Shown here one piece after another: positions 682 to 21,643 of a stretch of DNA of 28,748 nt (its first letter is position 1; each line of letters starts with the position of its first letter). The notes below the pieces were generated by a model. That model ran no database searches. It saw only the letters and a list, made by a program, of their open reading frames with translations, and was not told the origin of the DNA. Made by a program: the position numbers and the translations under genes. The stretch is from Candidatus Hadarchaeales archaeon (GTDB lineage Archaea > Hadarchaeota > Hadarchaeia > Hadarchaeales > Hadarchaeaceae), in the NCBI GenBank assembly GCA_038851075.1, contig JAWCLG010000012.1, positions 1-28,748 of the forward strand. The letters are read 5' to 3'.

Positions 682-773
682 TGGTGGGCCCGGAGGGATT
701 CGAACCCTCGACCTTCCGGTATCCGACATCGGGTTATCAGCCGAACGCGCTAACCATGCTGCGCCACGGGCCC
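682..773 (-). tRNA. tRNA-Ile(GAU) with 14-nt canonical 37/38 intron (721-734); CCA encoded
   Basis: Acceptor GGGCCCG/CGGGCCC+ACCA, D arm GCGC/GCGC, anticodon stem TTCGG/CCGGA, anticodon GAT at 738-736, T loop TTCGAAT; intron ACCCGATGTCGGAT whose TCGG pairs with C32-A35. Confidence 0.95.
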
Positions 774-9254: not shown

Positions 9255-9329
9255 GGGCCGGTAGATCAGCCCGGTATGATCGTCCGCTTGGCATGCGGGA
9301 GGTCGCGGGTTCAAATCCCGCCCGGTCCA
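9255..9329 (+). tRNA. tRNA-Ala(GGC), no intron, CCA not encoded
   Basis: Acceptor GGGCCGG/CCGGTCC with G3:U70, anticodon stem TCCGC/GCGGG, GGC at 9290-9292, T loop TTCAAAT. Confidence 0.96.
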
Positions 9330-9337
9330 CCTAACTT

Positions 9338-9372: not shown

Positions 9373-9447
9373 GGGCCCGTGGTCTAGTGGTATGACGTCA
9401 CCCTGACACGGTGAAGTTCCGGGGTTCGAATCCCCGCGGGCCCACCA
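9373..9447 (+). tRNA. tRNA-Val(GAC), CCA encoded
   Basis: Acceptor GGGCCCG/CGGGCCC+ACCA, anticodon arm TCACC-CTGACAC-GGTGA, T arm CGGGG-TTCGAAT-CCCCG. Confidence 0.96.
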
Positions 9448-9624
9448 CAAATATTAAAACAGGTTTTTCGCGGGATCGGGCTGGATATGGCTATAAAAGG
9501 TACAGCAACTAGGAATGTGGGGAAACATGGGCGAAAGCGAGTTGATGCCATTCGGTCGCGCGGATAAAAAGACATGCGCATCATCTTCAAACAGGGGTAC
9601 TGTAAAAAAGGACGCCTGACAGCC

Positions 9625-10806
9625 ATGAAGCGGATTCTGCCGGCGTTTATCATCTCATTCCTCATTCTCGCGCTAGCGTCCGGGGCGGCCTTGGCCTCGG
9701 TAGAAAACGCGGGAGTGACCCCAGAGAACGGACCGTGGACTTATGAATTCACGTTCTACATGAGCTACAGGGGCGAGTCTGGAATCGATATTAAACCTGA
9801 ATATCCCCTGCTGTACCTTGATAGCGTCGGGATTCCGATGTCTGAAAACGATCCTTTTGATAATGACGCCTCCGATGGAAAAATCTATGTGCTCACATGG
9901 CGGCCGGGCGCTGAAAACGTCGGCCCGCATTCGTTCTATTTCGTGGCCGTTTTAGAAAACGATGATGTGATAAGATTTCCATCCGAGGGTGAGATCGAAG
10001 GACCGGACGTACTTAGAGTGAAGCCGCTGTTCATCTGTTCGGTTTCAAAAAGTGAGGCCATGCCCGGTGAGAAAGTGACGATCTCGGGAACTGTCGTGAC
10101 AGCTGATGAAAACCTGCCGATCAGCGGGTCCGATCTAGAGGTTTACCAGATGGTATATGAAAATGAGATTCTCGCCGGAAGCACCAGAACCGGGCCCGAC
10201 GGTGAATTCTCGATGGAGGTGCAACCTCAGGAACAGGGCATCTACTGCTACAGGGTCAGGATCACAGATAACCTGCACTACGAGGAACCTGTTTCTAAGA
10301 GGCTTTACGTGTCGACCATAGATAAAGTAACTTTGCTGCTCGGATATTCGGGAGCACTCGCCGTGATAGCCGTGATCCTGTGCGTCCTTATAACATCTGG
10401 CCTTGGAAGAAAGAACGCCATAGCAATCTCTGTGCTCGGAGCAATTATCGGATTTTTGCTGATGTACCTTGGTGCCGGAGAACTTGGAGTGCTCGCAGCC
10501 GGGGCAATATCCGGATACATATGGTCAAAAAACTCACGCGAGTGGAGCAAGCACGTGAGGATGGGAATCGCCACAGGGATCATAATCGTGTTTATAGTGG
10601 GTACGCTTCTCGCCTACCTGCTAACGCTTCCACCGGATTTAATCGGGTTCGTCTTTTCCGTCACGCAGGGAGAGATGACCTCATATCTGATCCAGTGGGC
10701 CATATCATCAATCTTCATGTTTCTTGCGCTCGCGGCACTGGGCGCGATAATCGGGGGGCTCATCCGCAAGCTCTTAAACCCTCAGGTGAAAGAGGTTCAG
10801 CGGTAG
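9625..10806 (+). CDS. Hypothetical membrane protein: signal peptide, Ig-like extracellular domains, C-terminal multi-TM region
   Basis: MKRILPAFIISFLILALASGAALA signal peptide from 9625; acidic beta-rich ectodomain (PGEKVTISG, TGPDGEF); about 5 Gly-rich TM helices. Confidence 0.75.
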   Translation: MKRILPAFIISFLILALASGAALASVENAGVTPENGPWTYEFTFYMSYRGESGIDIKPEYPLLYLDSVGIPMSENDPFDNDASDGKIYVLTWRPGAENVGPHSFYFVAVLENDDVIRFPSEGEIEGPDVLRVKPLFICSVSKSEAMPGEKVTISGTVVTADENLPISGSDLEVYQMVYENEILAGSTRTGPDGEFSMEVQPQEQGIYCYRVRITDNLHYEEPVSKRLYVSTIDKVTLLLGYSGALAVIAVILCVLITSGLGRKNAIAISVLGAIIGFLLMYLGAGELGVLAAGAISGYIWSKNSREWSKHVRMGIATGIIIVFIVGTLLAYLLTLPPDLIGFVFSVTQGEMTSYLIQWAISSIFMFLALAALGAIIGGLIRKLLNPQVKEVQR

Positions 10807-10828
10807 CGGGGAAGTCGCAGCGGGGTAG

Positions 10829-10858
10829 AGCGGGAAGCGCGCGCTTCTCTGCCCCTAA
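10829..10858 (+). other. tRNA-iMet intron 1 (position 10/11, 30 nt)
   Basis: Bulges AG|A and AA|G, central helix GGGT/CCCT with one mismatch, internal hairpin GAAGC-GCGC-GCTTC; a 9/10 register is possible but gives an A10:C25 mismatch. Confidence 0.75.
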
Positions 10859-10887
10859 GGCAGCATGGAGTGCCCGCCGGGCTCATA

Positions 10888-10921
10888 AGGCGTCGGATTT
10901 TGTGTCCGACACTCCTGCGAT
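10888..10921 (+). other. tRNA-iMet intron 2 (canonical 37/38, 34 nt)
   Basis: Bulges TA|A and AT|A, central helix CTCA/TGCG (U:C mismatch), hairpin GTCGGA...TCCGAC. Confidence 0.88.
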
Positions 10922-10929
10922 ACCCGGAG

Positions 10930-10959
10930 ACGCCTGTGTGTAAATCTCAGGCGCCGGAA
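10930..10959 (+). other. tRNA-iMet intron 3 (position 45/46, 30 nt)
   Basis: Bulges AG|A and AA|G, perfect central helix CCGG/CCGG, 6-bp inner helix CGCCTG/CAGGCG. Confidence 0.88.
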
Positions 10960-10973
10960 GTCGGTGGTTCAAG

Positions 10974-11001
10974 AGGGGACGGCAAAAACGTCCTCTGGGA
11001 T
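10974..11001 (+). other. tRNA-iMet intron 4 (position 59/60, 28 nt)
   Basis: Strict BHB: bulges AG|A and AT|T, central TTCA/TGGG, 7-bp inner helix GGGGACG/CGTCCTC, outer helix = T stem. Confidence 0.88.
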
Positions 11002-11049
11002 TCCACCCCCCGCTACCACAAAATGCGGCATGTCTGCATTCGATCAATA

Positions 11050-11673
11050 ATGGTGGGACTGATGCTGACAACCATACTGATAATGATACCGGCCATCTTC
11101 CTGCTCGGTCCAGGAGGAGGGGCGGTCATCGCGCTGAGCAAAGGTATACCCCCGGCCGAAACTATGTTGCTCGTGAGCGCAATACACGCCGGACTGGTTC
11201 CGGTGTGGTTTGGAATTTTCGAACTCATCCACTACACGCTAAGATACAACAAGAGAATAATCGACATGATCTCAAGACGCGTAAAAATCGGGAGGAAAAT
11301 CACGAAAAACGCAAACTCGAACATCCAGGAGTTCGAGAGGAGAGTGGGACAGTGGGGACTAGGGCTCGGCACGGTCGCGTTCACCTTCGTATTCGGCATC
11401 TCATGGGCAGCGCTCATCGCATACATGATGAACATCAAGGAGAGAACGATATTTCTGTCGGTTACTGCGGGGGCCATAGCCTCGGCGATATTCTGGACCG
11501 CTGTTTATTCAGGTCTCACCTGGCTCGTGCCCAACATATGGATGGTCTACGTTGCGGGCTTAATCATGGCCCTCGGAGTGATGACGTACAACAGCGGAAA
11601 GGAACGCAGAGTCGTTGAAGAAATGGCAAAATCTCTCGATAAAATAATAGGCCATGGGCGGAAATCTACCTGA
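11050..11673 (+). CDS. Membrane protein, COG2426/small multidrug export-like
   Basis: GAVIALSKGIPP...LVPVW and GISWAALIAYMM segments resemble COG2426; true start must lie after the tRNA (11023, 11050 or 11062), not 10870. Confidence 0.65.
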   Translation: MVGLMLTTILIMIPAIFLLGPGGGAVIALSKGIPPAETMLLVSAIHAGLVPVWFGIFELIHYTLRYNKRIIDMISRRVKIGRKITKNANSNIQEFERRVGQWGLGLGTVAFTFVFGISWAALIAYMMNIKERTIFLSVTAGAIASAIFWTAVYSGLTWLVPNIWMVYVAGLIMALGVMTYNSGKERRVVEEMAKSLDKIIGHGRKST

Positions 11674-21347: not shown

Positions 21348-21643
21348 GCCGGCGTGCTGGCCGTAACCCACCTTTTGTTTTAGGCGACATTCAGCTCAGC
21401 GGGCTACCACCCGCCTCCGGCAGGCGCTCATCGGCGGAAACTTGCCCTTGCATCCCGCGGGTTGGCCGTTTCATCCTCGCCGGAACAACTTCAGCCTTCC
21501 GGCATCATCATGCACGGACCGGGAGGTCTCGTTTCTGTTCCATTGCCCCAACCTCTCGGCTGGACCCTTGCGGGCTCGCGGGCCTGCCCGATGGGTGGAG
21601 TTTCCTCAGGCTTCGCCCGACGGTCGCCCACCAGCTCGCCGGC
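21348..21643 (-). ncRNA. rnpB: RNase P RNA, archaeal type A
   Basis: P1 GCCGGCGAGCTGG/CCAGCACGCCGGC; CR-I GAGGAAACTCC, CR-II ACAGAAA, CR-III TGAAAC, CR-IV GAATG, CR-V ACAAAAGGTGGGTTA; P8 (GCCC-GCAA-GGGT), P9 and P6 (GGCAGGC/GCCTGCC) present; TTTTATT about 27 nt upstream. Confidence 0.95.

Follow-up and report, generated by a model that had tools for sequence, protein, structure and literature searches.

A probable single-copy initiator tRNA-Met gene with four predicted bulge-helix-bulge introns in a hot-spring Hadarchaeota genome

Results

Structure and product of the gene

The window analysed here is a stretch of 28,748 nucleotides (nt), to which all coordinates refer unless a contig is named. 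At 10819-11018 on the plus strand it contains what is very likely, judging from sequence, the functional and sole initiator transfer RNA (tRNA) gene, tRNA-Met(CAT), of a hot-spring Hadarchaeota genome of about 1 Mb, interrupted by four introns of the bulge-helix-bulge (BHB) type that would be spliced by protein enzymes. Throughout, the host genome is designated G000, related genomes carry other G numbers and orthologous loci carry L numbers. Removal of the four inserts from the 200 nt, done by script, leaves a 78-nt product with an encoded CCA, which ARAGORN calls as tRNA-Met(CAT) and folds into a full cloverleaf, with an acceptor stem of 7 base pairs (bp), a D-stem of 4 bp, and an anticodon stem and a T-stem of 5 bp each.

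From its 5' end, and in standard tRNA numbering, the gene starts with exon 1 (10819-10828, plus strand as are all its parts; 10 nt, tRNA positions 1-10), followed by intron 1 in the D-stem, at 10/11 (10829-10858, 30 nt). Exon 2 (10859-10887, 29 nt, positions 11-37) holds the anticodon CAT and runs up to intron 2 (10888-10921, 34 nt), which occupies the canonical position 37/38. The two following exons are very short: exon 3 (10922-10929) has 8 nt, positions 38-45, and is separated by intron 3, in the variable loop at 45/46 (10930-10959, 30 nt), from exon 4 (10960-10973), with 14 nt and positions 46-59. Intron 4 (10974-11001, 28 nt) lies in the T-loop at 59/60, and exon 5 (11002-11018, 17 nt) supplies positions 60-73 plus the CCA at 11016-11018. 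Each of the four inserts folds into a hairpin of its own, and introns 1, 3 and 4 have the 5' junction AG|A in common. A previous sequence-only reading of the same DNA had proposed that these 200 nt collapse into a complete 78-nt initiator tRNA, which ARAGORN on the joined exons bears out to the base; its insert sizes and positions, the sharing of AG|A and the lengths of exons 3 and 4 were likewise exact in all coordinates.

Besides the CAT anticodon, the joined product has an A1:U72 end pair and, at 29-31/39-41, a run of three G-C pairs beside the anticodon loop, a combination that we take to mark it as an archaeal initiator tRNA-Met. The elongator tRNA-Met is a separate gene of G000 (C4:26569-26680), which starts with G1 and has two introns, at 9/10 and in the anticodon stem.

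Splicing motifs of the four introns

We examined the junctions with the published BHB geometry as quoted in a 2026 preprint (10.64898/2026.10.13.758758), in which four exon bases 5' of a 3-nt bulge pair with four intron bases 5' of a second 3-nt bulge, the cut falls after the second bulge base, and the flanking helices have at least 2 bp. The central-plus-inner helix of each intron was compared with 20,000 shuffles per intron, and covariation with 500 shuffles. Intron 4 shows a strict hBHBh' motif, with four of four central pairs, a 7-bp inner helix and a 5-pair outer helix that is the T-stem itself, and none of the 20,000 shuffles reached the observed helix; across 21 orthologues, 91.2% of the cells were paired, against 38-65% in slid registers, with two-sided changes at 7 of 13 pairs. 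Likewise, intron 3 has a canonical HBh' motif with four of four central pairs (CCGG with CCGG), a 6-bp inner helix and no outer helix. The observed helix was reached by a single shuffle (1/20,000, or 0.00005), and 95.3% of the cells were paired across 16 orthologues (30-43% when slid), 5 of 12 pairs having two-sided changes. No shuffle (0/500) reached the covariation score of either intron.

The motif of intron 2 is relaxed, with three of four central pairs, an interrupted inner helix and the anticodon stem as its outer helix. A fraction of 0.018 of the shuffles reached the observed helix, 84.8% of the cells were paired across 13 orthologues (31-56% when slid), two-sided changes occurred at 3 of 14 pairs, and the covariation score was reached by 1/500 shuffles; the missing central pair, U33 opposite C, is shared by 11 of the 13 orthologues. 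Intron 1, in the standard register, also has three of four central pairs, together with a 5-bp inner helix and no outer helix (shuffle fraction, 0.0026). Here 81.5% of the cells were paired across 15 orthologues, against 36-79% when slid, only one of nine pairs changed on both sides, and U8 was paired in none of the 15. Intron 1 can also be arranged with a central helix of 4 bp, formed on G4-G7, and an outer helix of 2 bp to the D-stem, the 3' bulge having 3 nt and the 5' bulge 4 nt; this variant paired 93.9% of the cells and kept both helices intact in 15/15 orthologues. The sequence-only reading had placed a BHB at each junction; this holds in canonical form for introns 3 and 4, whereas introns 1 and 2 reach three of four central pairs and the 10/11 junction complies only as a variant.

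Processing machinery and a possible pathway

The host genome (1.009 Mb in 29 contigs, 52% G+C, 88% complete) encodes the ligase RtcB (PF01139, 601.9 bits; C8:40403-41710). A second, split RtcB-like match occurs at C3:103233-104972, at a contig end; two stop codons lie between the pieces, and the match may represent a broken copy or one that bears an intein. A full-length archaeal RNase P RNA, part of the enzyme expected to trim the leader, is encoded in the window itself, at 21352-21639 on the minus strand (Rfam RF00373, 208 bits, E 6.4e-61).

The splicing endonuclease EndA is found as one open reading frame (ORF) in 38 of 41 related genomes, including one of the same genus. All but one of these 38 have one PF01974 match; the remaining genome, G001, has two near-identical loci, on contigs C49 and C10, which suggests two strains in the bin. 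The same-genus EndA has 179 amino acids, residues 15-179 of which align to the EndA of M. jannaschii, 1A79 (chain A, 9-171; E 1.1e-40). Where the catalytic motifs align, it conserves Tyr, His and Lys, the catalytic triad of EndA. With a single subunit of about 180 residues that has one catalytic domain, no gene for a second subunit, and collinearity with 1A79, the relatives' enzyme would be of the alpha4 type. Furthermore, EndA proteins of intron-rich (G003, G001) and intron-free (G039, G035, G030) lineages are collinear, and their catalytic half is free of insertions and deletions.

We propose that transcription of the gene would give a precursor no shorter than 200 nt, in which the 3' part of each intron would pair with four exon bases lying two bases upstream of the 5' splice site, forming the central helix and the two bulges. 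A single alpha4-type EndA of about 180 residues would then cut both bulges, RtcB would join the exons and RNase P would take off the leader, the CCA being gene-encoded. For its central helix, intron 3 draws on positions 40-43, which form the 3' strand of the anticodon stem, and intron 1 draws on the 5' strand of the acceptor stem. Since the central helices borrow cloverleaf strands in this way, the cloverleaf and all four motifs cannot coexist. In particular, the intron 3 motif excludes the anticodon-stem outer helix of intron 2, so that intron 2 should come out after intron 3, or after the motif of the latter melts. Splicing would thus involve ordered or dynamic refolding in steps: intron 3 would leave ahead of intron 2, and intron 4 would go independently of both.

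Several points weigh against this proposal. EndA was not found in the 88%-complete G000, although an assembly gap is likely because the two genes that flank EndA in the same-genus genome are missing too. The same-genus EndA shows no insertion of more than 2 residues with respect to 1A79, and alpha4 enzymes are described as cutting only strict BHBs (Yoshihisa 2014, PMC4090602; Kaneta 2018, PMC5829648). Introns 1 and 2 form only three central pairs out of four, a relaxed class that appears in 34% and 10% of their shuffles, respectively, and that is weak evidence by itself, as the preprint cited above (10.64898/2026.10.13.758758) also notes. For intron 1, a continuous 9-bp helix without bulges pairs 98.5% of the cells, above either BHB model, and covariation cannot choose among these models because the intron 1 columns hardly vary. 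A blastn-short comparison of the four introns with G000 retrieved only chance matches of up to 14 nt and no mobile intron family; the introns have no relatives elsewhere in that genome that would point to their origin. Finally, we infer from sequence the transcription of the gene, the cleavage sites, splicing and its order, and the responsible enzyme.

These points leave some room, though we consider it unlikely, for the removal of certain inserts, chiefly that at 10/11, by a route other than EndA at a BHB, or only once the precursor has been remodelled by a chaperone, either protein or RNA. Such a route would suit the U8 that never pairs in the standard register, the best-fitting structure of intron 1, a continuous helix without a 5' bulge, and an enzyme that looks like the strict-specificity alpha4 type. 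However, the variant with a 4-nt 5' bulge pairs both helices in every one of the 15 orthologues, and the sequence of the 10/11 junction is conserved across all of them, as a recognition site would be. Archaea are not known to have another system for the removal of tRNA introns. Splicing by the EndA/RtcB pathway is, in our view, the most likely route for the four inserts.

A duplicated acceptor strand in the leader

A 7-nt duplicate of the acceptor-stem 5' strand lies in the leader at 10805-10811 (plus strand), 14 nt upstream of the tRNA start. If this copy were the true 5' end, the 14 nt between copies would be a fifth insert, and the mature RNA would be the same. The copy is preceded by ggt, like the true 5' end in intron-poor orthologues; its distance from the C-terminal box of the upstream gene equals that of the tRNA start in those orthologues; and an equivalent upstream copy is kept by most of the intron-rich ones. 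Nevertheless, we hold a fifth insert to be quite improbable. By eye, neither the 14 nt here nor the corresponding 18 nt in orthologues can be fitted with a BHB; an RNase P cut beside the proximal copy suffices for maturation without extra splicing; and the hairpin partner that orthologues show has been deleted from the window. With four inserts, the copy would be either a vestigial insertion of 14 nt or leader cut off by RNase P. Many orthologues have the upstream copy within a hairpin (GGTAG ... CTACC), the equivalent region in the window being 10802-10828, and one genus carries a duplicate of the complete exon 1 (10 nt), placed 8 nt upstream. The leader duplicate looks like a relic of an acceptor-stem intron or of partial gene conversion.

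Copy number and conservation

G000 has a single occurrence of the 14-nt exon-2 core, and BLAST with the joined product retrieved from that genome only the pieces of this locus, with no second copy, no intronless copy and no contiguous initiator-type anticodon arm; within the assembly, this is therefore the only initiator tRNA gene. A DNA search of 41 related genomes gave matches in 36. At the level of the phylum, 53 of 66 genomes contain the exon-2 core, which is single in 51 of them; the second matches are a contig-end duplicate (G033) and a chance match in coding sequence (G029). Such recurrence goes far beyond what chance would give. We reconstructed 52 orthologous genes by spliced alignment, and ARAGORN called all 52 spliced products as tRNA-Met(CAT).

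Purifying selection is seen on the exons only. In comparison with the same-genus genome, exons are identical at 74 of 75 positions and introns 1 to 4 at 27/30, 20/34, 20/30 and 16/28; with two genomes of another genus, the values are 74-75 of 75 for exons and 15-20 of 29-34 for introns. Overall, intron identity is 52-90% in these comparisons. In addition, orthologues show two-sided changes in the T-stem pairs whose members flank intron 4. Conserved exons, diverged introns and two-sided changes in the T-stem together indicate that selection acts on the spliced product.

That the gene is a decaying pseudogene, with a working initiator tRNA in an unassembled part of the genome, is very improbable. 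The incompleteness of G000 would accommodate such a copy, and four introns is the highest count found in that genome; against this stand the near-identity of the exons beside diverging introns, the single copy of the exon-2 core in nearly all the genomes that have it and the folding of all 52 spliced products. Moreover, three further genomes at species level, G001 (L002), G022 (L003) and G042 (L193), retain the same arrangement of four sites, a recurrence of intron positions among relatives that the sequence-only reading had marked as worth seeking. We can practically dismiss an assembly or binning artefact joining tRNA fragments: the sequence is from a metagenome-assembled genome (MAG) and a second strain is present in the sample, but contigs from three runs of one hot-spring study have no differences from the window over 10679-11300, 10655-10960 and 10646-10875, and are thus equal base for base across the junctions covered, and orthologues with such arrangements are present in dozens of genomes that were assembled independently. 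For 10600-11300, a search for sequencing runs gave four DNA runs of that hot-spring study and no RNA run. The second strain is seen as another contig in one of the runs, where exon 1, intron 1 and exon 2 are present in variant form. Misassembly and decay had both been named beforehand as ways in which the gene might prove illusory; the agreement of independent contigs, the constraint on the exons and the lack of an intronless copy in the assembly point the other way.

A series of zero to six introns in the phylum

The window encodes a transcription termination factor, FttA, with 68-75% identity to proteins of MAGs labelled Hadesarchaea or Hadarchaeota, which places it in the Hadarchaeota and agrees with the previous suggestion of a lineage other than the Thermoproteales. 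Intron counts for this phylum were taken from the 52 reconstructed genes. Ten of these have no intron, 12 have one, two have two and six have three; four introns, as in the window, are found in 14 genes, five introns in seven and six introns in one. The inserts recur at a limited set of sites, namely 10/11, 30/31, 37/38, 45/46, the T-loop, 13/14 and the acceptor stem. Numbers from 0 to 6 at recurring sites indicate that the inserts are additions to an otherwise identical gene.

The gene with six inserts, L017 (G003:C41, approximately 1348-1605 of the locus), yields a spliced product called tRNA-Met(CAT). Its inserts measure 41 nt in the acceptor stem, 28 at 15/16, 20 at 30/31, 36 at 37/38, 30 at 45/46 and 26 in the T-loop; with simple scoring, the 15/16 insert has two and the T-loop insert three of four central pairs. 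This number may be above any published count.

Acceptor-stem introns were identified in nine loci (L009, L010, L017, L114, L115, L202, L204, L205 and L206). The simple BHB scorer is unsuited to them because the motif takes in leader bases, so we read it by eye: the cut is at 4/5, and the central helix has four of four pairs, in which the final two bases of the leader, together with A1 and G2, pair with CTAC or CTAT close to the intron's 3' end. Since this helix uses leader bases, splicing would have to precede trimming by RNase P.

Some loci required individual treatment. We dropped from the counts L127, a contig-end fragment of G033; L210, a chance coding match; and L203, a gene cut by a contig end with at least four introns visible. 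L125 is truncated at its 5' end and was counted as having no introns for the part present. The first apparent intron of L015, L195, L197 and L200, of 48-49 nt, includes the upstream duplicate of exon 1, and the 87 and 111 nt obtained for L204 and L205 are alignment artefacts of an acceptor-stem intron of about 37 nt; neither affects the counts. A tolerant alignment setting skipped the 8-nt exon 3, merging introns 2 and 3, and was rejected except for L123 and L129, where it was kept because the stricter one misplaced the T-arm.

Annotation of the locus and overlapping reading frames

An ARAGORN scan of the raw DNA made no call at 10819-11018. Rfam missed the gene at its gathering score and also gave no matches at E<=10 with lax filters on 10760-11060. 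The expectation that standard tRNA finders would miss the gene is thus correct for these two, and the gap is a practical one, because to ARAGORN or Rfam the host genome shows no initiator tRNA. As had also been noticed, the stretch is masked by ORFs, which overlap the gene on both strands (10380-10943 and 10870-11673 on the plus strand, 10883-11071 on the minus strand). The downstream ORF, 10870-11673, has a sub-threshold Pfam match to Sm_multidrug_ex (27.9 bits; cut-off, 30.7) that starts 83 residues in, and an in-frame ATG at 11023 opens a stop-free frame of 216 residues ending at 11673.

Upstream gene and candidate promoter

A membrane-protein ORF (9574-10806, plus strand) stops 12 nt 5' of the tRNA gene, and the box coding for the C-terminus of this protein is kept beside the tRNA gene in many orthologues. 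This conservation indicates that the synteny of both genes is old and that any promoter would be embedded in coding sequence. A TATA-like, A/T-rich box at 10771-10778 (plus strand), inside the 3' end of the upstream ORF, is a possible though uncertain promoter. It lies about 27-34 nt 5' of the leader copy at 10805, and many orthologues have a similar box at similar spacing, which is in them also coding sequence of the upstream gene, so that its conservation is no proof of function.

Other tRNA genes of the host genome

We took a partial census of the G000 tRNA genes using as references 42 of the 47 tRNAs of G010, which are compact, and skipping the five with introns; several references match the same G000 gene or a neighbouring isoacceptor. 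Within this partial census, the other tRNA genes located have zero to three inserts, so that none of them is as interrupted as the initiator gene. Rfam returns 36 tRNA-like matches in G000, many of them compact. The window itself holds a tRNA-Ile(GAT) whose 14-nt intron lies close to the anticodon loop (682-773, minus strand) and two compact genes on the plus strand, tRNA-Ala(GGC) at 9255-9331 and tRNA-Val(GAC) at 9373-9447. Interruption is, then, not universal among the tRNA genes of G000. Reference-guided alignment located a Lys(CTT)-like gene with three inserts (C6:19964-20078) and a Glu(CTC) gene with two (C23:2817-2933); an Arg gene with two inserts (C5:25978-26081) was located with the CCT reference and is called TCT by ARAGORN. 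An alignment of the Phe reference at C10:4118-4512 and one of the Gly reference L190, with nine apparent introns, were discarded as artefacts.

Discussion

A 2015 review by Kanai (PMC4390854) gives three introns as the maximum per archaeal tRNA gene, exemplified by the tRNA-Glu(UUC) of Pyrobaculum calidifontis. The sequence-only reading had likewise taken three as the ceiling, in agreement with that review, and had seen in this gene a possible new extreme. A new extreme is not supported, since a 2026 bioRxiv preprint (10.64898/2026.10.13.758758) counts as many as five intervening sequences within one Asgard tRNA gene and our orthologues include seven genes with five introns and one with six. 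Four introns is no record, and the lineage was already flagged in 2018 for tRNA disruption: Kaneta and co-workers (PMC5829648) predicted tRNAs for one Hadesarchaeon, YNP_N21, and noted such disruption in Hadesarchaea, although they give proportions of categories in a figure, and their text is without intron counts per gene or the structure of the initiator gene. Outside the 2026 preprint, we found in the literature no archaeal tRNA gene with four or more introns, and outside Kaneta 2018 no account of tRNA introns in Hadarchaeota. Nor did we find a description of this gene, of an initiator tRNA with at least four introns, or of a tRNA gene with six; per-gene counts may, however, stand in supplementary tables.

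The gene resembles the multi-intron tRNAs of the Thermoproteales in having several short BHB-type introns, with relaxed HBh' motifs, at sites that include 45/46 and 59/60. Indeed, 30/31, 45/46 and 59/60 are listed as recurrent non-canonical sites by Yoshihisa 2014 (PMC4090602), whereas 10/11 is absent from that list, which ends in 'etc.'. The differences lie in the number of introns, four here against the review maximum of three; in the enzyme, which in Thermoproteales is an (alpha-beta)2 EndA with a specificity loop and in Hadarchaeota appears to be a single alpha4-like EndA; and in the transposing intron families described for Thermoproteales, as no related intron copies were found elsewhere in G000. 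On the enzyme, our alignment also departs from Kaneta 2018, which attributes an L3 loop to the Hadesarchaeal EndA, whereas the same-genus protein aligns without any insertion above 2 residues.

With the Asgard tRNAs, as presented in the 2026 preprint, the Hadarchaeota share many genes with multiple inserts, BHB-compatible sites and D-arm inserts that annotation misses. They belong to another phylum and habitat, though, and most of the tRNA genes located in G000 have zero to three introns, unlike in Asgard genomes, in which nearly all are interrupted (92-95% of tRNA genes, according to PMC11291895). In addition, one Hadarchaeota orthologue has six inserts, above the Asgard maximum of five. A parallel in layout is the nuclear tRNA-Ile(UAU) of the red alga Cyanidioschyzon merolae (PMC3728597), which combines D-stem, 37/38 and T-loop introns in one gene. 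In that eukaryotic gene, with three introns, the D-stem and T-loop introns were experimentally shown to leave before that at 37/38; a similar order would apply here, as deduced from sequence.

It is conceivable, although we would put it at somewhat less than an even chance, that the single-copy initiator gene of Hadarchaeales, with six inserts in one species, five in seven others and a natural 0-to-6 series among the species of one order, is the most interrupted prokaryotic tRNA gene on record, in organisms having only an alpha4 EndA, similar to that of M. jannaschii and without a visible specificity loop. If so, either alpha4 EndA would be far less strict than textbooks say, or a helper not yet known would remodel the precursors. 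Every protein of the organism starts with this tRNA, whose gene is essential and single-copy, and the need for four precise excisions, of which two fall at imperfect motifs, would make it a stringent natural test of an alpha4-type EndA. The interest of the gene is, in all, less in the number four than in the 0-to-6 series, in the relaxed motifs facing an alpha4-like enzyme and in the annotation blind spot. The series would allow intron gain, intron loss and splicing order to be studied in a lineage independent of Thermoproteales and Asgard archaea.

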